Source of the DNA: Lingula anatina
Taxonomy: Eukaryota > Animalia > Brachiopoda
Length of the DNA: 64,000 bases
Direction: 5' to 3'
NCBI GenBank assembly: GCA_051362555.1
Contig: CM120641.1
Span: 20,894,001 to 20,958,000 of the forward strand
Part shown: piece by piece, positions 11,101 to 49,443 of the stretch
How positions within the stretch are numbered: position 1 is the first letter of the stretch
Layout of the letters: each line of letters opens with the position of its first letter
Notes under the pieces: generated by a model
Databases searched by the model: none
What the model saw: the letters and a program-made list of their open reading frames with translations, nothing else
What the model was told of the DNA's origin: nothing
Translations under genes and position numbers: made by a program

Positions 11101-14100
11101 TCATTTTCACTGTTAGAGGTGCAAGTCATCTGGAATTCAGATTGGTATCTGTGTTTTTTAATCCAGATTCTGAGGAAATTCCTACTTATGAAGAAGTGGC
11201 ATTGTACTACCCACAGCCTAACAGGAAGAGGCCAGTCGTGTTGATAGGACCACCCAACACAGGACGCCATGAACTCAGACGGAGACTTATGGAGAGTGAC
11301 GTAGATCGATTTGCTGCTGCAGTACCTCGTGAGTGCTACATTTCTCAACTTTTTGTGTGTAGATTTTATGACAGAATGACATTTTATTTATTTATTTATT
11401 TATTTATTTCACTTTAAAAAGTTTCTAGACATGCCAGTAGTTAAATGAGTCTGATGCACAGGGTTTTGGAATTAAAGTTGAAATAGACTTTTTACTTAAA
11501 TGTTTGAGTTAATGCTCAGAAATAGCTAATTCTATCAATTTCAATCAAGAAAATATATAAGAAAGCTATTGTAATATTGAGGATTGTTGAATGTGTAAAG
11601 CTGGTTTCTTGAAGTTAATTAGATGTGACTGTGCTTAGCAGGTGATCTGTGGTCTAAAAAACATTGTTCTCTTTATAATAGGGAGAGTTGTATTGCTTTA
11701 TGGTAGTGCCACTAACAATCAAGAATAACAAGAAATTGACTTGAAATATGGTTGTTTTTGTATTTAAGATTTGAGGCCATGGACTGAGTTGACTTAACTG
11801 TACATGCTGTAAATCTGATAGACTAGCAAATAAGAAATTGGTGTCAATTGATAATTTTAGCTTTGTGGTATAGAATTTCCAATTTTGTCCTGAAATTTAT
11901 ACAATTGAAATTTTTAAACATACAGAATTTTATTGGAATAAAAATATTGTTAAGACTAGTAAAATAAACTTTGCCTGAATGTTACAATTCTTTCTGGTCA
12001 GGGAACATTTCTGATTATAAGGCCACTGAACAATTAGACAGATAGTTTTAAAAATTACATTTTAGTTGTAATATAAGTTCTGCATTTTGTTCTCATGGTA
12101 AAAGTCACACATTTTGCTTGATCATGGAAGGTGCCTTTTTGCTGTTTAATAATAATAATAATAATAATTTGACTATTTCATTTAAACACATATAATTTTT
12201 ATGTACAGACACAGATGTGTCTGTACATATAGCCGTCATCTGCGTCTGTCGTCGCCGTCGTCGCCGTGCACTTTTACCGATAACACGATAAGTGAAAAAC
12301 TGTTTTTTCTTTTTGTTTGAAACTTACAGAACTGATGAATATTCATAATACGCAGGTCGAGTTCGAAAATCAGCATGATCGGGTCACTTATATGGAATTT
12401 ATGCTGTTTTTTCACTTTTTTCAGCATATATGCAGCACCGATAACACGATAAGTGGAAAACCATTTTACCTTTTGGCTTGAAACTTACAGAACTGATGAA
12501 TATACATAATACGGAGGTTAAGTTCGAAAATCAGCATGATTGGGTCATTTTTAGTGAATTTAGGCTATTTTTTCTCTTTTTTCAGCATATGTGCAGCACC
12601 GATAACACATAGGGGGAAAACCATTTTACCTTTTGGCTTGAAACTTACAGAACTGATAAATATTCATAAGAAGCCGGTCAAGTTTGAAAATCAGCACGAT
12701 CGGGTCACTTATAGGGAATTTATGCTGTTTTTTCACTTTTTTCAGTATATATGCAACACTGATAACACAATATAAGAAAAACAGATTGGCCAATTGTCAT
12801 TATACTCACAGGAGGGGCCAATCTTACTAAAACGCAGGTTGAGTTTGAAAATCAGCATAATCAGTCCATTATTTTAGAAGTTATGCTGTTTTTTCACATT
12901 TCCTCACATTCAATTCTTAGGCATGTTAACAGTCTCATTATTGAACTAATAAGATACGTAAAAGTGTTTGTTTGACATTTCCTGCATCTTAAAAACATTG
13001 TTAGTTGATTTTTTAAAAATGGTGGTAAACTTGTTATCATGTATTGTGTAATAAAGTGTCAAAAATGGAAATAAACTCATATCATTGCAGTTTGTCAGAT
13101 GCATTCATCCACTATGTTCAGAATCTCAGAATGGAGGAAGTTGGACATTTAACACTGTTCTATTGATACTTTTCCCATCTCATCAATTTTCTTCATTGGT
13201 CATATAAAAAGGGAAGTAAACTGTTTATTTTGTTTTATGTTAAAAAAGTGTTAAAAATGGAAATAAACCCATTTCAGAACAGTGCTGTCTTGTTTACATC
13301 TTGGCATTTTCAGTATGTGACTTTGAAGTTCCATGGGCCTGAAGACTTTTGCTTGTCACATTTTCTGAATAACCATGATACTAATATTTTATAATTAAAA
13401 ATTGATGGTCATTATGCTGTAAAACATTATGTAATATTGCATCAAAATGTGAAGAAACCCCTATTTTGGTCACTGCTCCCATGATGACCATTTAAGGAAA
13501 ATCATGTCACTTACTGTTCTCAAACTTACAGGAAAGAGACATGGGACTAAAATACAGCTTCAGTAGGCAATGCAGTCTGTTTGGTAAATTTTTCTGGCAA
13601 TTAAACAGTTTTTTGTGAAAATTTAATTTTTCACATATTGGCATTTCCAAGGTGTGACTTAGAACCTCCACGGGCTTGAAGACCCATGCTAGTCACATTT
13701 TGTGAAAATCCATGACACTTATATTTTATTATTAATAATCGATGGTCATTATGCTGTTAAGCATTATGTAATGTTGCATCAAAATAGAAGAAAACACAAT
13801 TTTTGGTGCTGCTGCCTTGATGACCATTATGGGGAAACCGTGTTACTTATGACTGTCAAACTTTCAAAAAAGAAACACAGGACTAAAATGCAGCCTGAGT
13901 TAGAAAAGCAGTCTAATTGGCTTCTTTTTCTGGAAGTTATACATTTTAGTGTAATATTCATTACCTTTTTGGCATATTCATTGTGGGACTCGGAGCTCCC
14001 ATGGACATGAAGCCAAATGGTCATCATATTTTCTACATGTCCATCCTATTTATAGTCAATAAACAAAAATTGGTGATAATCATTCTCTAATTTATTATGT

Positions 14101-27239: not shown

Positions 27240-28850
27240 ATGCAGGCACAACCCATGAAGTTCCTGATAGCTGTGATGGTAGTCACTTTAGCTCAGGGTG
27301 GGAAAATCTTGATCAAACCATTTGGACAGTGTTGGGGATCCCACCTCTTAAACCTTGAGTTTCTAGCAGGATTCCTTGTTGACAAAGGACACGAGGTTTA
27401 TTTCATAGCACCAAGCAGATATGCTGGACCATATAACCCTTATGCCAAGAACTTTAAAAATAAAGTCCATTTGATCAAATACACCACTCCAGAATTCGAG
27501 ATGGAACATTCATTCCAATCTTGTGATACATCCGATTCTATTGACAATATCAGGAAAGAGAGCCCTACAAAGCAGCTTCATTATAGAATGTCACACGAGT
27601 TTAGCCACTGTAAGGCATTATTCATGTCAACTGGCTCTTTGAAACACATCAAGAATCTAAAAGCCGACTTGGTTATAACAGACAGTCTGGCAGTGTGTGG
27701 GAGTATTTTAGCTACCTATCTTGATATTCCATATGTGACTGTTGATATGGTGCCAGGTAGTCACAGGTCTGTTTGGGATTTGCCTCACACCCCATACCTA
27801 CCTGGTGTTGATATGCCATTCAGTGATCAAATGACATTGATGGAAAGAGTGCAGAACTCGGTCTTTCAATATTTTCTTCAACCCATTCAAAACTATATTT
27901 TCAGAGGCTACTTTTTAAATCCGTTTAGGGAATTGTTGGAGTACTGTAATCTTACTGATGTAACTTTAACAGATCTTGTTAACCATGGAGCTGCCTATAG
28001 AATTTACAACACCGATTTTTCAATAGAGTATCCAAGCCCAGTGCTTCCAAATATGGCTTTCATCGGTGGATTTTTTAATACTGGATCTAGACCTTTAGAA
28101 AAAGAGGTGACTTTGTTTCTTCAAGATGTTGAGGAAAAGGAGGGCTTGGTCATTGTGAGCATGGGATCTCGAACCCGCTATGACATCCAGTGGGGTAATC
28201 TATTCGCTAAGGCTTTAGCACTGTTACCATGTAAAGTCATATGGAGACACATACCTGACACAAATGATCTTGATGATTTCCCAAGTGAACACGGTAAAAA
28301 TACAATGATAGTGAAGTGGCTTCCTCAAAGAGAATTGCTCTCAAATCCTAAAACAAAACTGTTTGTAACTCATGCAGGAGCAGGGTCTATGTTTGAAGCA
28401 GTATATCATGGTGTCCCTGTCTTGACCATTCCTTTAATTGCTGACCAGCCCCATCAGGCCAAGAAGTTGACTGACCGCTTGAAAATGGGGACATATCTGG
28501 AAGTGTCAACACTGACAGCTGACAGCCTGCACTCAGAATTATTGACAGTACTGAATAATACTGTGTATGCAGAAAATGCAAAGAAAGCATCTAAGATTTT
28601 AAGACTTAGTTTAGAAGGTCACGGACAGAAAATACTATCCGTTATAAACTCTGCTATTGCAGCCAAAGGAGCTATGCATTTACAGTCTAAACTAAACCAT
28701 ATGTCTTGGTATCAATATTATTCTGTTGACGTGATACTGGTAGTTGTGATATGTTTGATGCTTTTACCTATGCCTCTTTATATCTGTAGTAGATTTTTCT
28801 CTAACATGACAGTCAGAGATAAAATGAAAGTGGCAAGCAAAAATGATTGA
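27240..28850 (+). CDS. UDP-glucuronosyl/glycosyltransferase (GT1 family), single coding exon
   Basis: Signal peptide, then GGKIL..GSH (catalytic His position), the UGT signature WLPQRELLSNPKTKLFVTHAGAGSMFEAVYHGVPVLTIPLIADQ, the GAMHL..SWYQYYSVDV motif and a C-terminal TM helix. A likely 5'UTR splice acceptor atttccag ends at 27218, so ATG 27240 is the probable start. Confidence 0.93.
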   Translation: MQAQPMKFLIAVMVVTLAQGGKILIKPFGQCWGSHLLNLEFLAGFLVDKGHEVYFIAPSRYAGPYNPYAKNFKNKVHLIKYTTPEFEMEHSFQSCDTSDSIDNIRKESPTKQLHYRMSHEFSHCKALFMSTGSLKHIKNLKADLVITDSLAVCGSILATYLDIPYVTVDMVPGSHRSVWDLPHTPYLPGVDMPFSDQMTLMERVQNSVFQYFLQPIQNYIFRGYFLNPFRELLEYCNLTDVTLTDLVNHGAAYRIYNTDFSIEYPSPVLPNMAFIGGFFNTGSRPLEKEVTLFLQDVEEKEGLVIVSMGSRTRYDIQWGNLFAKALALLPCKVIWRHIPDTNDLDDFPSEHGKNTMIVKWLPQRELLSNPKTKLFVTHAGAGSMFEAVYHGVPVLTIPLIADQPHQAKKLTDRLKMGTYLEVSTLTADSLHSELLTVLNNTVYAENAKKASKILRLSLEGHGQKILSVINSAIAAKGAMHLQSKLNHMSWYQYYSVDVILVVVICLMLLPMPLYICSRFFSNMTVRDKMKVASKND

Positions 28851-29761: not shown

Positions 29762-30358
29762 TATGACAACCCACCTTGGTAGTGTTTGATGGGTCTACTT
29801 CAACAACAACAACAAAAAAATTATATACTGTAACTTGGGTTAAAATGGGGGGATGTTCAAAAAGATACCTACACTAATCAATGATAGACTGGTGAGGACA
29901 TTAATACAAAGCAAGAAAAATCTATGTCTACATTTAACTAGAATCTTGATAAGCAAGTCAGAAGTCTATTCTAAGCTCAATGAAAAAGTCTCTAAAAACT
30001 CGAAAGCACTTTAAGATACCAATCAACCTATACAAAGAATCCAATAAACTGGAATAGAAGCATGTATCTGTGACGTTTGTAAATGTTACTTTAAAAAAAC
30101 CCATGTAAAATCTAGACAGTTCATAGAGAAAAGTAATCCGTATGTCCCTACACATTTCTAGGCCCATGCCATCACCACTAAGAACAAGAATTTTTGCAAA
30201 TTTTAACATTAAATCATTACTGTTGTCTGTCATTGGTATCACTATATGTCTGAGGAGGACCAGCCAAAAATAATTCACTAATATCATGATCTTGCAAAGA
30301 GGAAAAAAAAAGAGGCCGATCACTATATAAACAGGCAAACTCAAATGTCACCTGCACC

Positions 30359-30691
30359 TCAAAACTGTCCTATACATCCCATAAGACTTTTTCTAGGTGT
30401 CAAATATTGCATGTAAACTAGAGGTAACAAATCACTGTTGCCACAAAACTGTCCTATACATCTAATACCACTTTTTTAGGTGTCAAATATTCCATGTAAA
30501 CTAGAAGTAACAAATCACTGTTGCCACAAAACTGTCCTATATATCTAATACAACTTTTTCTAGGTTTCAAACATTCCATGTAAACAAGAGCTGACAAATC
30601 ACTGTATCACAAAACTCCTATGCATCTGATAGGACTTTTTCTAGGTGTCAAATATTCCATGTAAACAAGAGGTAACAAATCCCTGTTGCCA
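30359..30691. repeat. ~83-86-bp minisatellite, 4 copies
   Basis: The unit caaaactgtcctatacatc...tttctaggtgtcaaatattccatgtaaac.agaggtaacaaatcactgttgcca is repeated four times. Confidence 0.9.
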
Positions 30692-30867
30692 TGGTTCACA
30701 GTTACAATGGTATACAAAGCCCTTTAGTCAAACCAAAATGCACAGTCACTATCGACGATTAGTTTTTCCAACCAAATCACATTAACACATATTTCCTGTC
30801 CCTTTTTCCTGTGGTCCAAGCCTGTCATCATGTTGACAAGACAGTCCTTTCCTTTTCCAAATGACAT

Positions 30868-33800
30868 TTAAGCAGTGTCACTGTTCCATGTCTTCATGTC
30901 TGTCACCATGGCATTAAACAGGTCTATCAGGTGGTTTGGAGAGCTACTGTTTAGGTCCGTCTCCGTACATCCTGGACAACGGAATCCACCTGGCCCTGAG
31001 AAGTAACATCTCTTGCACTTCTGATTGAGAAAAAATGAAATTAAAGCACTATGTGCCCCAACCTTTTCAACCCACTTGTCATTTTGTTGTCCAATATAAG
31101 ATGGATGCATAAGCACAGCAGGAGTATAAAATAGCATTAGCTAGATGTTCACACACACAAATGCCACTTCCTGAGCTTTCAATACTCTTTACCACCAGTA
31201 CAATATGTTTTCATGATGCTGCTGTAAAATATTAATTCAAATATCATTAAAAGAGCTGTTAGTCAATTTGGAAGGAAAATGCCAAAAATCCTTCCTTAAT
31301 TTGTCATTATGTAATTTTGTACTGTCTACCTGACAATGCACATCTCCAGTTCTCCTGCAGTACTTGCATTCAACACAATGATTCCTGGGGCTGTCTACTT
31401 CACTGCACAACTCACCTGAAGACAAATCAAGTAATGATACTGCACAGTTTGTGTCTGCTTTCTACTTGAAAATGTAACTCTTTAATTATCTTAAATAAAT
31501 TGCAAGTAAACAATACCGTTTATGTGCATAAAAAGTAAATAACAGTTCCAGTATGTTCAGAAGGAATGGTTATGCAAATGATATGTTGTCAGGCATGTGC
31601 CTTATAATGGTCATTTGAATATTGAAAAAATCTTTATTCGAAAGGGAAAACTATCTCCTCTGTATCAATTTTTAAGTTTGAACCCGAATTCATCTGTGCC
31701 AACTGCTGTACAACTATACTTGTCTTCATTATGGATGGAGCAAAGGGATGAAATTGAACTAGCCATTTTCACTAATCCTTTAACTATCAATATCCATATT
31801 TTATATATTTGTGATCAATCATAATGTATTACCTATACACCAAGAGTACTTGTATGCCTGTTTGCAAGCAGGATAGTTGGGACACAGCACTGTGGAGGGG
31901 ATACAGTACTTCAGCTTGGCACTACATCCACAGCAGGGGAAATGTATGTTACACTCCAGATACTGGGGAAGGTTCTGAATCTGGTGACAAAATGGCAATG
32001 GATCAGTTTGCAAAACTGGTTATATTAACACAACTGAAGGAAAAGCTGAGCTACTGGATGTAAGGTTTCAAGGACAAAGATGCATCTGAGAGGTTAACAA
32101 GAGTTGAAATTTCATCTAGTGTAATGAAAATCTATTTTAATTTTATCAAAAATATATCATCAGCGTTTCAATTACATCACAGAAACATCCGCTAGTTTTC
32201 CTAATAGGATGTGAAGAGGTGAAGTCATAGGACAAAAAGGTTTATATTAATTATGCTTTCAAATAAAATCTAATTAAACTTTGATAGAATTTAATAAGCT
32301 CTATGAAATATGATCTTCATTAAATTCATTTTTTTAAAAACTTAAAACACACAAACACCTGTTGGAGCATCATATAATCATTTACACTGATCACCCACCT
32401 TGGTCAGATTTTGAAATAAACAAGGGTCATCTTGTATTTCTTGCAGTCCAATGCCAACTTGAGTGAGGATATTCAAAGGGTTTGTGCACCCAATACACTG
32501 GCAATCACTGCATTTCTTTCCCAAAGACAAGCATCCACATGACAGGGTGGAGCAAATGCCTCCCTCTGCACCAGACACAGTGCATTCACATCTGGCACTG
32601 CCTTCTAACTGTGATGTAAGCATGACTGGGGTCTTTGTTGGTTCTTCAATAGGATCTGAAAGGAGAACATGCTTTTGGTTTCCTCATATGACAATATTTG
32701 AGTAAAATTCCTTTGAAGTGTCAAATGATGTCATTCTTCAGGTACTGAGTACGTGTGTATTATCATTAGAACTTCTCTCTAAAGCATTAGAAATTAACAT
32801 TTGGCAAATCAACAGAATTACAGCCATTATTTGAGACAAAATTAATTAACTTAAAAATCTAATGTATATTCACTTGGTAAGTTAAGAGGTATTACAAAAC
32901 CAGTGGAAAATGAAAGAGAATATAAGAAGAAAAACAACATGAACAACAGGAACCTACTAGAAAAATCTATGCCAGGATAAATGTTATTTCCTTCCCCAAA
33001 CCCTGAAACAACTGGCAGAGTTTTGCCAGTGAGCTCAATGAATGGCTTCTTAAACAATCCATCTAGTCTCTCATCAAAACCAGACAAATATTTCTTGAAG
33101 TTTAAAGCCGTGTTCATCTTCAAAGTTATCTGTAAGATATGGCAATGTGAACAAAGATAAGAATTTATATTAAATCACATTAAAGAGAACACCTACTGTT
33201 TGTTGAGAAGTTCAAAGTAAAGCAGAAGTGAAGTCTTTACTTCCTTCTGTTTACATATATATCTTTAGATAATTCCAATGTACTTGATAAGTAGCTGGAC
33301 CACCTTGCTGCTTATTTGCGAAATGACCCCTGCAAATCAGTCCCCAGTGGCAGTACTTTTCAAACTTTAATAATAATTTTTACTCATTTTTTTTCTGCAA
33401 TTACATAATAATCTTACCTTGTGGTATGGACAGGTCTTAAACTGACCCCCAGTGACATCACAGTGGTCATTTATATGCCTGGTATGAAAGAAAGGTTGGT
33501 AGGAGCTTCCCTCGGTTACCAGCTTGTAACCAGGAAAAATATACGGAGCTCTGTTCACTTCCACCTGGATGGTACTGAAGTGGGCATGAAGACCAACTAT
33601 GGTGCTGAATGGAACTTCTATATTAACCAGAAGTTTCACATTCCTATTATGTGGGAAGGTGCCCGTTTCAAACTGGTAAACCAGCTTCCTAAAGTGGAGA
33701 GATAATATTATAAAAGCCAATGTCCTGATATGGCACTGCATAGACAGGCATACTGAAATATGAACATATATTGGATTGAATATATATAACTTCCAAATAT

Positions 33801-36800
33801 AAAATAAAATAGCTCTATCCAGTGGAAATACAATGGCAATAACATAAAAGATGATAATAATAACAATGAAACTGTAGATGAAAAGTTTTGAAAATCCGGA
33901 CAAACGAGGCATTTAGTATATCATAAAAGCAGCCTAAAAGCAACTGCAAACCTCAATAAAATGCAATTCTTAACAGATTATCAGTAACACCAAATACACT
34001 CAAGAGCTTTACTAAAAGCAGCTGGTATCAACAAATAATAATTTTGTTAGTATTAATAGATGGTGGTATTAGGAATCACATGGTAATAATTGCATGCAAT
34101 AGCAAATTAAGCTACATGAATATTTCTCTATCAGATGATTTCTTAAGAATCTCATTTACATATTACCTGACGTTTGTAGGTGGTTTCGCATTTATAATAT
34201 TGACAATATAGGTAACAATAAAATCATTCAAAATGGCTTTAAATACCCCCCCCCAAACAAAAAGCATATCCCAATTGAGTGAAGCATGCAGATGTTAATT
34301 AGAAAATGCAATGTTGAACTGTTACTTTACACAAAAAGGAGACCTTTAAAATAAAAATAACAAGCATTTGGCTTAAAAGAACAAATTGATTCATATAAAA
34401 ATCCCAAAACAAATCAGAATGTGAACAATCTAGTTTGTGAGCATAAACTATAATACACAGATCTCCCCATCGAAGCAGCCAGGTTTTGTCCACACCCATG
34501 GTCACAACTTTAAACTTTCTTATGTTCATACAGCCTTATCAACGAGATGGTGAAAATTTTGATTCACCCTGTAGTGTGATATCAATGATGAGAAGAGTAT
34601 AGAGACTCTATAGATACCACCTGACCAGTCCATTAAGTCACTGACGCTCATTTACCTGATGAAGACTGGTGGTATTGATTGCAACACTGGATCGTTGCTG
34701 CATATCATTAGTAATAAAGGATTAGTCAATTAGGGTGCAAAACAAAGCAAGCATACACACACACCTGGTGGAGAAAATAAGCTTGATTTTAGCTAGCAGT
34801 GGCACTGGGCCCTCTATGCTGCTATTAGAAAACTACAAGAAAACCAGAGGCTGTGAAGGATATCACAAGTTTAAATATCAACACACAGTTGTTTCACAGA
34901 AGTTGCGCTTATATCTACTACAGGAAAGCACAAACAGATGAAGAAATTTCTATATAATAATGTGACAGAGTTACATGTACCAATCTTTAAAATAAGGACA
35001 AGGTATTACACACATAAATTAAATCAATTCTTTATTTTATGATTAAAATCACAAACCAGTTCAATGTTTACTGGTCAACATAATTGGCATTTCTATTAAC
35101 AGAAATGTTTACCTTAAAAGTTCCAATTTGGAGCTCCTTCATTCTAAAATTCCTTGGCTTATGCATTCCTTTGGTTTGCTTCCATGTAGAAACTAGTTAG
35201 ACAAAAATAAAGTATACACTAAAATATAAACGCTCAAAAAATTTTCAACATAATCATTTGGTTAAAATTTGATCAAAAAGTAATAAACTTTGGCTTTTTT
35301 TTCACTCATCTTCAACACATGAGGAAACATATGTCTCATACCCAATATATGCTACATACACAGTCATACCCTAGCTATTACTTAATAAAATATCTACTTT
35401 TGTTATCTTAGTTAAGTCTATATGGTACTGTTCTCACTTAATTTTTCTATCATTACAGATTACTAATAGAAATGATCCATTAGGCTAATAAATAAAGAAC
35501 ATACCACGCCATGGTGGTACTGGAGGCAGTGAAACTGTTCCAATCTGAACATTTTCCCCCTGGCTGTCACAATTCTGTCCAGAGACCATTAGAGGCTGAC
35601 CACTGAAGTAGTTCACATCTGGTCTCTTCCCTTCTCTTGGTTGGTTCCAATCTACATAACCACTAGAGGGCAGTCCCACAACCTTGTCAAAAAGAGCTCC
35701 ATTTTTATCCAATAAAGGGGCAACAGAGTTTTTGTTCTGATAAAGATTATGTTTCCTTCCTGCTACTATTGATCCCCTTGACAATGTACATGCAAATCCT
35801 TTTTGCGGTTGCTGATTGGAGACAAACGGCTGACTTAAATAAGATTGACCAATGGTAGAGGATCTATTTGGCAAGGACAACAATTGGCGAATCAAGGGGC
35901 TATCTGGTGAGGCTCGTTTGACTGAAGTTCCAATGTCTTCTCTAGCATAAGGAGGGCTCAGCGTGGCACCAGCGAACATAGCAGGAGAATGTGTAGAGTA
36001 TGTTAATTTGGTAATGTCATCAACATGAACCTGGTACTTCTGGTTTTTGACAGTTTGCTCATCAATCAAACTTCTCATGTCGTCTGCTGCACACTGGGTC
36101 TGCTCTCTTGGTTCAGGCAAGGGGAACACGGAAAGTCCAGTTTCTACAATATGGCCCTCTCCTTTTTGCTTGTTGTTTGTTCCACAACTACCTTGACTAG
36201 ATTTTGAACTGGTTGGATTCAACAGCTCACTACTTGTACAAGTAGATATGCCAACTGGACTTACCTCCATCTGCTTGTTGTGAGTTGCATGGAGTAAAGG
36301 AGCACCTTGTACAGATAAAATAGACCATGGCATTGTTTCAGACCCAGATATGTTCTCAGTCTCCATAAGATCAAGAATTTCTTTCACTGGCTCAGAAATC
36401 TGCCCACTAACCATCTCCTGGCCTTCTTTTCCAGAATAAGGTCCCACTGTGGCTTTATCTTGGGAAGCATTGGAAACAGCCCCTTGTAAAGCTTCTTCTT
36501 CCTCCTCCTCTTCTTGCTCATTTAGCTTACAAGGTTTGGCTCTGAGGGGCGTTGAAGTGGCAAGAGGAGAGTCTTGGATTAGCTCGCCAACCGGGTTCTC
36601 AGGGAGAACCTCTTCCAACTGTTGTTGGTTAACGGGTGGCTCCAGAGAATGTGGAGCAACTGGACAACCAGAGACCATGAGAAGTTCATTTTCACTTATG
36701 TCCTCTGACACAGCACTCGATGAGAAGTCTTCATTTACACAGGCACTTGGTAAGTCTTCATGGAATGCACTGTCAAATGTTTGCTGTTCAACATAAGTCT

Positions 36801-38110
36801 GACTGGATGTCATTTGGCTATCACCAAATCTCCTCTTTTTGTCACATGATGTGCTGGTGTGGTCACATGATATGCTGGTATGCCCCTTTCGCTTTCTTGC
36901 GTTGTGCAAGTTGTCCCCTATTGTCACACCTTCCCCAGGCCCTGCTGTTGGCTCCACAGAGTTCCCATGCTGGTTGTCCCCAGCAACTGAAACTTGAACG
37001 ACATGGCTCCTTGAAATTTGCAAGTTCTCAAGCTGCTGGCTTCCACCACTGTCCCCACTGATAGCTTCACTCATTTCTGTTCTATGGGGCCTCTGATACA
37101 TGCAGGATGGTAGGTTGTAAGGCCAAACCATTACATTTGGGTCAAGATTCAAGGGCTGTTGCCAATCAGTACAGACTGGTTGACTAACAACATGTGGTTG
37201 GCACAAGGGAGCAGACCATGTTGAGCTATGCACTGCCCCCTCTCTATTCACAGTCCATCTGATCTCACTAACAGGGGCTGAAAAGCTTTGAGAGCAAACC
37301 CCATATCCATCAGGTAGATTAGATAACAATGCTGTATCTTGGAAGCTTGTATAATTGCATGATGGGGAAGGACCAGAGTCCCTTGGGAATTGTGACTGTT
37401 GGGAGTAATTTTGGTTCTGGTTGTAAATAGTTTCTTCTGCAGTGTAATCAAATGAGTTGTTTCCACACATATTATGGTGTCTGTATGGTGTGCAGCTTTC
37501 TGCAAGTTGTGACACATAGTTTGCAGGACTGAAATAATTACTGGCTAGGGCAACATTTCCATAACCTTCATTGCAGTTCACATGTTCTCGTCTCTGAAAA
37601 TCCCAGTCAGTTTTTCCTGTACTTTCCACCACTGGTACAACACTGCCACCATAACTGATAATAGAGCCAGCGTGTATTGGCTTAAAAGAAAACATCACAT
37701 GATCAAAGGGTGAACAAACATATTTGACAGCGACAATTAATTTTAGACACATTGAAGTCGATCAGTTTATAGTACATGATGTACTGGTACATACTCAAAT
37801 ATACATATATGACAGATACACACATCAAACTGAAATAACTTACTAACACGTACTTTTCTATGACAAGTTGTCAACGACCGATTGTTTTAAGAACTGACAG
37901 TCTGATTTTGTACTTGATGCTGAGTGTGTCACAGGACCTGTGTTCGGACTCATTTTGGGTCATGAGATTGACGACAGGTTTCCCTATTTTTTTCAAGATC
38001 TCAAATTATCAGAAAAATACCATGTGAAATGAATATCTTTTTAAAACTGAAACGACTTTGATACATACCTTCTCTTCAAAAGGCAACGTAGATCTATCCA
38101 AAGAAACCAT
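30868..38110 (-). CDS. Uncharacterised ~1150-aa protein: long low-complexity N-terminus + TRF2/HOY1-type PH-like domain + CXC motif + Cys/His-rich zinc-binding C-terminus. Exons approx. 38110-38069(?), 37680-35505, 35192-35113, 34832-34765, 33688-33418, 33129-~32958, 32655-32399, 31980-31833, 31415-31330, 31020-30868
   Basis: A 755-codon ORF is followed by eight phase-compatible exons giving NFRMKELQIGTFK..LLAKIKLIFSTRKLVYQF..IEVPFSTIVGL..DVTGGQ..DERLDGL, then CEC..CSTLSCGCLSLGKKCSDCQCIGCTNP and HCVECKYC..HCQKCKRC..CPGC. The first exon, the start codon and one donor (~32958) are uncertain. Confidence 0.8.
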
Positions 38111-38228
38111 AACGTTTAGAACAGAAAAGAAAAACGAAAAGACATGCAACTTCAACCTTTCGCTTTTCGGCGTAGCAGAGTCGGCAAAAATGTGCTGGGT
38201 TACATATAAAATTGTGCAAGAGATTAGC

Positions 38229-38573
38229 TTAAAGTGATAATAACTCTTCGTTTCGGCCAAAAAAATAATTTTCCTGGAGTAAACAACAATTTTCCCATAC
38301 TTACCAATGATTAATGAATCCATTTTTACATTCAAAGTTAGTCCCTGGTTTTTTTCTAAAAAGTTTGGTTTTTTGTTAAAATCTCTTAAGAGATTTTATC
38401 AGAGTATAGCTATCAATGGAGGTCACGTGGTCTAAAGACAAGCTCAGATATCAGAATAATAGCTATAACAGCCGTTTTTGTGGGAAAACAGAATATGTTA
38501 TATTTTTATGAGTCATTCACAATGTTTTTATGGTGAAATACAGATTTCATACGAAGAGTTATTATCCCTTTAA
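38229..38573 (-). mobile_element. Kolobok-like MITE (copy 3)
   Basis: ttaaagtgataataactcttcg ... acgaagagttattatccctttaa, the reverse complement of copy 1. Confidence 0.85.
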
Positions 38574-46811: not shown

Positions 46812-47220
46812 TGCACCAAGTTCTTTGTTTCACACTATATTAACTTAGATCTCAATAACTACCACTAAACAGACAATATGCCCTTGAATAACCTCAAACA
46901 CACTTGAAGGTCGTGTGGACTTTGTACTCCCTTTACTTGTTAACTTCCGGTTTCTGAATTTAGAAGGAGACTGTCGCGCGGAGTAAGCGCTGACTTTGAA
47001 CAGAGATGATGTAATCAAATCGCCCATCTAAAATCATGTAAAGTGAAATGAAAATATTAAAAAAAACTTTTGTAGATGTATTAACATAATGATGACAAAT
47101 AACAACATTAATGATGATAATTTTTATTCTAAAAATGGTCCTGATATTTTTGTAATTTTGCAAAAAAAAAAAAGTGGAAGTGATCAATTGAAAGTAATTA
47201 AGATGAATTGCACCGTTTTA

Positions 47221-49443
47221 TTTTTATGCACAGACACAGGTGTGTCTGTACATATTGCCATCACCTGCGTCTGTCGTTGCCGTCGCCATCGCCGTCGCCG
47301 ATGCCGGCACCGTGCACTTTCCTTGTAAACACGATAAGTGGAAGGCAGTTTTACTTTTTGGCTTTATATTTACAGAGCTGATGAATATTCATAAAACGCA
47401 GGTCAAGTTCGAAAATCAGCATCATCGGGCCATTATTGTAGAAGTTATGCTGTTTTTTCACTTTTCAGCATATATGCAACACTGTAAACACATTTCAAGG
47501 AAAACTGATAGGCCTGTTGTCATGAAACTCACAGAAAAAATCAGTCTTACTAAAACGCAGGTCAAGTTCGAAAATCGGCATGATCGGACCACTATTTTAG
47601 CAGTTATGCTTGTTTTTCACTTTTCAGCATATATGCAACACTGTAAACACAATATAAGAAAAACAGATAGGCCAATTGTCATTAAACTTACAGGAGTGGT
47701 CAATCCTGCTAAAATGCAGGTTGAGTTCAAAAGTCAGCATAATCGGGCCTTTATTTTAGAAGTTATGCTGTTTTGTCACATTTCCTCAAATTCAATTCTT
47801 AGGCATGTTAACAGTTTCATTATTTCATTAATAAGATATGTAAAAGTGTTTGTTTGACATTTCCTGCATCTTTACAACATTGTTAGTTGATTTTGTAAAA
47901 ATGATGGTAAACTTGTTATCGTGTATTGTGTAATAAAAATTTCAAAAATGGAAATAACTCATATCATTGCAGTTTGCCATATTCAATCATTCACTATGTT
48001 CAGAATCTCAGAATGGAGGAAATTGGACATTTAACACTGTTGTATTGATATTTTTCCCATCTCATCAATTTTCTTAGTTGATTGTATGAAAATGGCAGTA
48101 ACCTGTTAATTTTGTTTTATGTTAAAAAATTTGTTAAAAATAGAAAAAAAAAAAAAAAACATTTCAGAACAGTGCTGTCTTGTTTACATTTTGGCATTTT
48201 CAAGTTGTGACTTTGAAGTTCCATGGGCCTGAAGACCTTTGCTAGTCACATTTTCTGAATATCCATGATACTAATATTTTATTATTAAAATTGATGGTCA
48301 TTATGCTGTTAACCATTATGTAATATTGCATCAAAATTTGAAAAAAACCTATTTTGGGCACTGCTCCCATGATGACCATTTAAGAATAAAAACCATGTCA
48401 CTTCAGAATCTCAGAATCTCAGAATGGAAGAAATTGGACATTTAACACTGTTTTATTGATGTTTTCCCCATCTCATCAATTTTCTTAGTTGATCATATAA
48501 AAATGGCAGTAAACTGTTAATTTTGTTTTATGTTAAAAATTGTTAAAAATGGGGAAAAAACATTTCAGAACAGTGCTGTCTTGTTTACATTTTGGCATTT
48601 TCAAGTTGTGACTTTTAAGTTCCATGGGCCTGAAGACCTTTGCTAGTCACATTTTCTAAATATCTATGATACTAATATTTTATTATCAAAAATTGATGTT
48701 CATCATGCTGTTAAACATTATGTAATATTGCATCAAAATTTGAAAAAAACCTATTTTGGGCACTGCTCCCATGATGACCATTTAAGAAAAACCATGTCAC
48801 TTACTGTTCTCAAACAGTACAGTAAATATATATAGATGTGTCTGTACATATTGCCATCACCTGCGTCTGTCGTCGCCGTCATCGCCGGCGCTAGCACCAT
48901 GCACTTTCCTTGTAAACAAGATAAGTGGAAGGCAGTTTTACTTTTTGGCTTTATATTTACAGAGCTGATGAATATTCATAAAACGCAGGTCAAGTTCGAA
49001 AATCAGCATGATCGGGCCATTATTGTAGAAGTTATGCTTTTTTTTTTCACTTTTCAGCATATATGCAACACTGTAAACACATTTCAAGGAAAACCGATAG
49101 GCCTGTTGTCATGAAACTCACAGGAGTAATTGATCTTACTAAAATGCAAGTCAAGTTCGAAAATCGGCATGCAGCCTGAGTTGGAAAAGCAGTCTAATTG
49201 GCTTCTTTTTCTGGAAGTTATACATTTTCAAAGAGTGAACTTGAACTCCCATGGGCCTGAAGCCTTATGCTTGTTACACATTTTACTTACATTGGTATTA
49301 CCTGTTGAGCATAATTAAAATTTGATGTTGAATTTGCAGTTTAACATAATGTACTTTTGCATCAGAATTGACAGTAGCCTATTTTGTGCATAGTTATTTC
49401 ATGCTTTTTGTCTGTACATTTGACAGCTTTGCTGCCTTGTTTA
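47221..49443 (+). mobile_element. Composite copy of the Helentron-like element (long copy with internal duplication plus a second, internally deleted copy starting ~48836)
   Basis: Same 5' hairpin, microsatellite, ~160-bp units and 3' end (tgtctgtacatttgacagctttgctgccttgttt) as 12196-15630. 48001-48403 is repeated at ~48411-48802, and the 5' head restarts at ~48836. Confidence 0.8.

Follow-up and report, generated by a model that had tools for sequence, protein, structure and literature searches.

A spliced Lingula anatina gene in which a PH-like domain of the TRF2/HOY1 type is combined with a CXC zinc module that has eukaryotic and prokaryotic relatives

We analysed a window of 64,000 nucleotides from the brachiopod Lingula anatina (assembly GCA_051362555.1, contig CM120641.1, positions 20,894,001 to 20,958,000 of the forward strand), which contains a minus-strand gene for a protein with a PH-like domain and a CXC zinc module. 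Ten exons between positions 38110 and 30868 join to a frame of 1150 amino acids (protein P0002) whose sole stop is the final one. The first coding exon (38069..38110, 42 nt, 14 codons) starts with the ATG at 38110 and is followed by a large exon (35505..37680, 2176 nt) encoding the Ser-rich, low-complexity residues 15-740. The PH-like domain is spread over an 80-nt exon with its first strands (35113..35192), a 68-nt exon (34765..34832), a 271-nt exon with the core and the invariant His879 (33418..33688) and a 172-nt exon (32958..33129) with the last strand, the C-terminal helices and the start of a linker. The 257-nt exon at 32399..32655 encodes the linker, the CXC motif (Cys959-Cys993, Asn995) and the helical start of the zinc module, which continues in a 148-nt exon (31833..31980; Cys1038, 1055, 1061 and 1070), an 86-nt exon with two His-Cys-x2-Cys repeats (31330..31415) and the last coding exon (30868..31020), where the zinc tail ends in a C-terminal helix and a TAA stop. 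Splicing and RNA define the PH exons, together with Pfam for the first three and the predicted model for the first and the last; for the zinc module exons RNA was combined with the alignment (257-, 148- and 86-nt exons), Pfam (257-nt exon) or the model (last exon). Downstream, same-strand RNA of depth 5-12 in run X1 marks a likely 3' untranslated region (29800..30867), within which lies a tandem repeat of four 83-bp units (86% matches, 30360-30691). A preliminary description, made from the letters of the window, had placed the gene at 30868..35192; the eight exons there are real, and two thirds of the coding region, on its 5' side, had been omitted.

Between 35192 and 30868, all eight exons are bounded by AG/GT and, as that description had proposed for small exons there, join in phase into one open frame that contains the peptide it quoted. 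RNA reads crossed all eight junctions from the large exon to the last one, with CT..AC ends on the plus strand. The last two introns had 15 and 20 spanning reads in run X1; the other six had 8/15/8, 4/13/12, 3/10/6, 6/6/15, 5/6/17 and 5/6/10 reads in runs X1/X2/X3. First mates over the exons lay almost exclusively on the plus strand in X1-X3, consistent with minus-strand RNA in a stranded library, and the large exon was covered at depth 6-24 in X1. No spanning joint for the first intron (37681-38068) was found among the RNA joints listed; the first exon therefore rests on the start of the RefSeq model XP_013383717 and on splice signals, including its GT donor. The gene drew about 6.5, 10 and 11 reads per kb per million in X1-X3, against 0.3 in X9. 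Four other letters stand at the donor side of the junction 32655-32962 in X7 and X8, two runs whose source animals are more divergent, possibly a different allele or a shifted splice site.

Against RefSeq XP_013383717.1 (uncharacterized protein LOC106154036, Lingula anatina), the 1150-residue model shows 11 substitutions and no gaps. A second RefSeq locus, LOC106160313, is gapless to LOC106154036 over the last 372 residues and differs at the start only; from their sequences the two are likely uncollapsed haplotypes. In the Lingula protein P0001 the 5' end is modelled wrongly, and the first PH strands are missing. The N-terminal ~740 residues had been described as rich in Ser, Gln and Pro, which agrees with their composition (12.9%, 7.1% and 7.0%, respectively). 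For residues 15-740 neither a Pfam domain nor a BLAST match in any relative was found. Two basic clusters in this region (residues 276-279 and 295-298; 36829..36897, minus strand), seen as a pattern only, may represent a bipartite nuclear localisation signal.

Residues 748-916 of P0002, scanned as an isolated region, matched the Pfam family PF24818 (PH_TRF2_HOY1) with 30.6 bits (E 3.5e-7) over model positions 1-115 of 119, above the gathering cut-off of 24 bits; scores below the cut-off were obtained for a single exon (14.9 bits) and for the truncated P0001 (13.2 bits). The predicted structure of the region showed a PH-like fold, a beta-sandwich with a C-terminal helix, so that the proposed membership in the TRF2/HOY1 family held in sequence and in fold. 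Animal members score 14-31 bits, and six animal relatives exceed the cut-off unaided; automatic annotation is thus already able to see the domain in animals. The nearest solved folds are the PH domains of RDR2, SYCP2 and REC114. SYCP2 ranked first in the structure comparison, tied with RDR2, and REC114 third; RDR2 was the best Foldseek match of both models, and the best match in the Atlas was PH_RDR2 (score 0.90), with PF24818 look-alikes, whose clusters there are mostly from Streptophyta, at 0.81-0.83. These three domains share 4-15% identity with the Lingula domain and no polymerase or other domain, and the fold shows no function. PMC13650160 calls the RDR2 beta-barrel a PH domain; it does not identify this subdomain as the binding surface and was therefore not used here as functional support. 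Unlike proteins of the HOY1 type, the animal proteins lack a homeodomain, for which no match was found in P0002 or in 60 relatives scanned; they carry the CXC zinc module instead, with 550-1800 low-complexity residues upstream. P0002 had no match to the polymerase domain of RNA-dependent RNA polymerases (RdRP) either.

The CXC motif of the preliminary description is a true one. Its nine cysteines (Cys959, 961, 971, 976, 978, 985, 988, 990 and 993) and Asn995 follow the superfamily consensus of nine spaced Cys and a C-terminal Asn given in PMC3447885, and are 97-100% conserved in an alignment of 63 eukaryotic and 25 prokaryotic rows. On its exon, MSL2-CXC (PF16682) scored 27.7 bits against a cut-off of 26.7, and the best PDB sequence match was the MSL2 CXC (E 0.0066). 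Further downstream, 13 Cys and two His are conserved to 86-100% in the eukaryotic and to 96-100% in the prokaryotic rows. From the ligand pattern a Zn3Cys9 cluster and about four further putative zinc sites, formed by these 15 residues, would be expected. Both the CXC motif and the Cys/His tail had been predicted, as separate parts; they are a single module of ~160 residues that travels together and also occurs as stand-alone genes in prokaryotes. The CXC part is modelled with a predicted local distance difference test value of about 50-80. The predicted template modelling score is 0.84 for the PH-like domain alone and 0.46 for PH-like domain and zinc module together, and the two domains are predicted to have no fixed packing.

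Neither Pfam nor NCBIfam (5 proteins scanned) nor PADLOC (scanned with the stand-alone module or P0002) holds a family dedicated to this module. With MSL2 and the CXC/pre-SET superfamily the Lingula protein shares the published spacing, the signature Asn and the single CXC; in contrast to MSL2, it has no RING (no match in P0002). No match to the ~120-residue helical and Cys/His extension directly after the CXC was found in the structures of MSL2 and LIN54. Similarity to the Tesmin/TSO1/LIN54 type (PF03638) is reflected in UniRef, where several relatives are named 'Tesmin/TSO1-like CXC domain-containing protein', yet the Lingula protein has one CXC and not two, and the TCR profile gave 17.2 bits (cut-off 23.5) in Lingula and sub-threshold scores in all proteins scanned. 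The last ~35 residues weakly resemble the CCHC motif of ZCCHC4 (E 0.12-0.15, third Foldseek rank) and, counting DHHC motifs, reach E 0.12-0.96; the methyltransferase and transmembrane domains of those proteins are absent.

R543 is the sole base-reading residue of MSL2, and binding is abolished on its loss (PMC4248295); LIN54 employs tyrosines and requires two CXC units (PMC4974476). We mapped the corresponding position to the residue before the fourth Cys, using the 2lua alignment and the residue names in PMC4248295 and PMC3447885. In Lingula it is a Ser, in place of both the MSL2 Arg and the minor-groove Tyr of LIN54, and the equivalent of R526 is a Glu. An Arg is present in all 55 distinct prokaryotic motifs (46 open reading frames, mostly cut at the locus end, did not match the pattern) and in 30 of 34 tail-only eukaryotic motifs (the other four unmatched). 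Among 27 PH-fused motifs it was found in 12, two were unmatched, and 13 carry Ser, Glu, Met, Val, Gln, Asn or Thr. Because of the Ser, DNA reading of the MSL2 type by the Lingula protein is doubtful; the label 'DNA-binding-like' was right about the CXC and implied more DNA binding than the Ser and a CXC net charge of -1 suggest. The conserved MSL2-type Arg, on the other hand, supports nucleic-acid binding as the old role of the module.

The prokaryotic members were traced from an Atlas cluster of 155 residues that is 86% bacterial and scored 0.93 to the zinc module; other look-alikes were a rotifer cluster (0.89) and an ascomycete cluster (0.78). GTDB genomes were scanned with a short exact motif, which yielded 123 stretches in 120 loci. 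A profile made from the HMMER-search sequences only matched 110 of 112 motif-containing reading frames at E<0.001 and none of 224 shuffled or reversed controls. The module loci are bacterial in 98 and archaeal in 11 cases, led by Chloroflexota (29), Thermodesulfobacteriota (22) and Planctomycetota (17). Of the 66 complete cases, 61 have a Met at most 15 residues before the CXC and a stop ~151 residues after it; these are therefore stand-alone genes. They form a tight clade (support 100/99), the tightness of which is partly a product of the exact-motif selection, and the direction of any transfer is not readable from it. No match to the PH profile was found in 3259 reading frames around these genes. 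Viral relatives did not appear either (no motif match in IMG/VR, no BFVD match at E<=0.001).

A conserved operon was not found among 80 loci: with frame-overlap artefacts set aside, the largest groups with shared neighbours comprise 5-10 of them, from one genome or from related archaea, and most share no neighbour. The contexts are mobile and not fixed. In a metagenome-assembled genome of Chlamydiae the module gene lies in a ~2.6-kb repeat with a 618-residue transposase of the IS66 family, present, among the loci compared, in seven near-identical copies (L005, L006, L008, L018, L066, L074 and L080) that begin ~2460 nt upstream of the motif and reach 150 nt beyond it. In Methanoperedens and related archaea (L041:3105-7025; also L026, L043, L047 and L064) the module gene, itself preceded by a small reading frame, is located directly upstream of a gene pair, in L041 PglZ and BrxL (BREX). 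In L003 it precedes JetC of Wadjet.

P0001, used as query of an exhaustive HMMER search in 1.84 billion representatives, matched 109 proteins at E<=0.001. Word-index searches returned only the Lingula P0001 with the PH exon, none of 978 candidates with the C-terminal region of P0002 and two of 5565 candidates with the tail profile. Both domains were present in 34 of 119 proteins scanned, with profiles that were built from 23 of the closest relatives and are therefore partly circular. Species names were looked up for part of the relatives only (22 of the 109 matches), and the named carriers of both domains are Lingula, Mactra, Mya, Potamilus, Sinanodonta, Owenia, Capitella, Tachypleus, Parasteatoda, Procambarus, Scylla (PH weak), Oculina, Porites, Saccoglossus, Branchiostoma and Convolutriloba (PH weak). 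Among named relatives, proteins of eight animal phyla and of the protist Ancoracysta have PH-like domain, CXC and Cys/His tail in succession, and the gene is thus no peculiarity of a single animal. Vertebrates, insects and nematodes were not among the named relatives, which does not imply their absence since most matches are unnamed. Nor was a plant or fungal protein with both domains among the names looked up. As had been supposed, no characterised animal orthologue was found among the relatives, which are labelled 'uncharacterized' or 'Tesmin/TSO1-like CXC domain-containing'. Short paralogues of ~230 residues in Branchiostoma (P0014, P0124) and Saccoglossus (P0057) are nearly the zinc module alone, and the amphioxus one keeps the Arg. 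In P0033 and P0121 a RING finger precedes the CXC zinc module, echoing RING and CXC of MSL2.

The Ancoracysta twista protein (P0049) matched PF24818 with 71.4 bits, has the same tail in the same order and aligned to P0002 with E 5e-13 and 1e-21; its spacing, with the PH-like domain near the start and a long linker, is like that of the acoel protein. The trees of the tail place bivalves, corals, spiders and decapods in a group each, and Ancoracysta with 12 tail-only sequences (94/93), which are taken to be non-animal eukaryotes; this grouping argues against animal contamination. Ancient retention fits better than transfer or contamination because the same layout occurs in eight phyla and in Ancoracysta. 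The pattern suggests that animals have inherited the gene vertically since the cnidarian-bilaterian ancestor or earlier and have lost it many times.

The flanking genes are ordinary and comprise a MAGUK (L27, PDZ, guanylate kinase), a PolyA_pol-head gene of the CCA-adding type, a GNAT and a strictosidine-synthase-like gene as well as a UDP-glycosyltransferase (PF00201, E 1e-78; 27240-28850, plus strand), which is intronless and converges on the 3' end of the PH and CXC gene. Just upstream of the start codon lies an interspersed repeat of ~350 bp (38228-38573) that is matched by hundreds to thousands of RNA reads of 90-95% identity from both strands. Joints between opposite strands were found at its ends, and its features suggest an element like a miniature inverted-repeat transposable element. 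Repeated, non-genic-looking reading frames at 47207-47857, 48836-49114 and 12500-12775 (all plus strand) contain the same short units and are probably copies of one repeat family.

The gene is a spliced and expressed member of an old eukaryotic family. Arguing from sequence, we hold with moderate confidence that its product would serve as a nuclear adaptor with no enzymatic function; the Lingula protein lacks a catalytic domain. The PH-like domain would bind a partner protein, as in chromosome-associated proteins, and the zinc module would contact chromatin or nucleic acid, nucleic-acid binding being its putative ancestral role. With Ser in place of Arg, the Lingula copy would reach chromatin via its tail or its partners and not by base reading of the MSL2 type, and the basic motifs in the low-complexity N-terminus would place it in the nucleus. 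Several observations weigh against this reading. The scan of full-length P0002 did not report PF24818, and P0001 stays below the cut-off. Foldseek gave no match at E<=0.001; FERM and PTB rows lie within ~2 Z units, and the PH fold is common and also found in cytoplasmic proteins. The CXC has the Ser and the negative net charge described above. The deep branches of the tail tree lack resolution, a single clade of PH-fused proteins was neither rejected nor shown (p-AU 0.118, approximately unbiased test on 41 of 88 rows), and the non-animal fusion rests on one transcriptome protein, that of Ancoracysta.

A sequence-specific transcription factor, in which the CXC reads DNA as in MSL2 or LIN54 and the N-terminus activates, comparable to the homeodomain pairing of fungal HOY1/Phx1, would account for the complete CXC, its best PDB match and the Arg kept in 12 of 27 fused relatives. 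The activating region of Phx1 presumably holds its PH-like domain. When tethered, the Phx1 region after the homeodomain activates transcription (PMC3438059). We consider this factor unlikely for Lingula, where the Ser, the Glu and the charge speak against it, as do the variable position in 13 of the fused members and the single CXC, two being required by LIN54 (PMC4974476). It is quite unlikely that the protein is an RNA-binding or small-RNA-pathway cofactor with an RdRP-type PH-like domain and a tail that binds RNA as the ZCCHC4 CCHC does. RDR2 leads both the Foldseek and the Atlas matches, Oculina P0113 touches PH_fung_RdRP (E 0.012), and ZCCHC4, whose CCHC domain is part of an RNA-binding surface (PMC6834594), appears at Foldseek rank 3 (E 0.12) and as a weak profile match (E 0.15); however, all of these matches are weak or at fold level, no RdRP or other RNA-pathway domain was found in the proteins scanned, and the PH sequence belongs to PH_TRF2_HOY1 and not to PH_RDR2.

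A germline or meiotic chromosome factor, whose PH-like domain would work in the manner of the SYCP2 and REC114 domains, has a similarly low probability: these proteins hold ranks 1 and 3 in the structure comparison and the ~30-fold spread in read density (0.3 to 11) is compatible with tissue-restricted expression, but the first rank is tied with RDR2 at 4-9% identity, the low-count runs come from more divergent animals and the tissues of the runs are not given. Less probable still is an adaptor outside the nucleus, such as one for ubiquitin ligation, whose zinc module binds protein or buffers metal, since no RING was found in the animal proteins scanned, the chromatin protein MSL2 likewise combines RING and CXC (PMC3447885), and nucleic acid is indicated by the invariant Arg in prokaryotes. 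A contaminant, or a gene recently transferred from a plant or fungus, would fit the Streptophyta-dominated PF24818 clusters in the Atlas and animal scores near the cut-off; it is extremely unlikely, given nine introns of which eight are confirmed by RNA (introns had been the argument of the preliminary description against contamination), ordinary intron-containing neighbours, a layout shared by eight animal phyla that cluster by lineage, and no named plant or fungal protein with both domains among the 22 matches looked up.

Beyond the nuclear adaptor, we tentatively consider a wider history, which is possible though not probable: CXC and tail would be an undescribed multi-zinc nucleic-acid-binding domain that exists in prokaryotes as a mobile stand-alone gene with an invariant Arg (IS66-like, beside BREX or Wadjet), was fused early to a PH-like domain as a chromatin factor and was kept from a provoran protist to amphioxus. 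Both domains come from known superfamilies, whereas neither their fusion nor its distribution nor the larger CXC module that includes prokaryotic members appears to have been described. No published description of the PF24818 PH and CXC layout or of these loci was found in the literature searched, which covered titles and abstract openings on CXC, tesmin and prokaryote topics and left subscription journals and supplements outside its scope.

Alone, the finding settles no long-standing question, and the function is one that we infer. A domain family seen for the most part in plants and fungi turns up in a gene family conserved among invertebrates, in which the second domain hints at the job and which has no member from the usual model animals among the matches looked up. 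The compact, highly conserved prokaryotic members of 150-160 residues are easy to express and assay; they could show whether DNA binding by a CXC occurs beyond eukaryotes and what the origin of the CXC/pre-SET fold was. The wider history, if true, would link a prokaryotic family with the CXC/pre-SET superfamily and give the animal toolkit an ancient chromatin regulator that was lost and overlooked.

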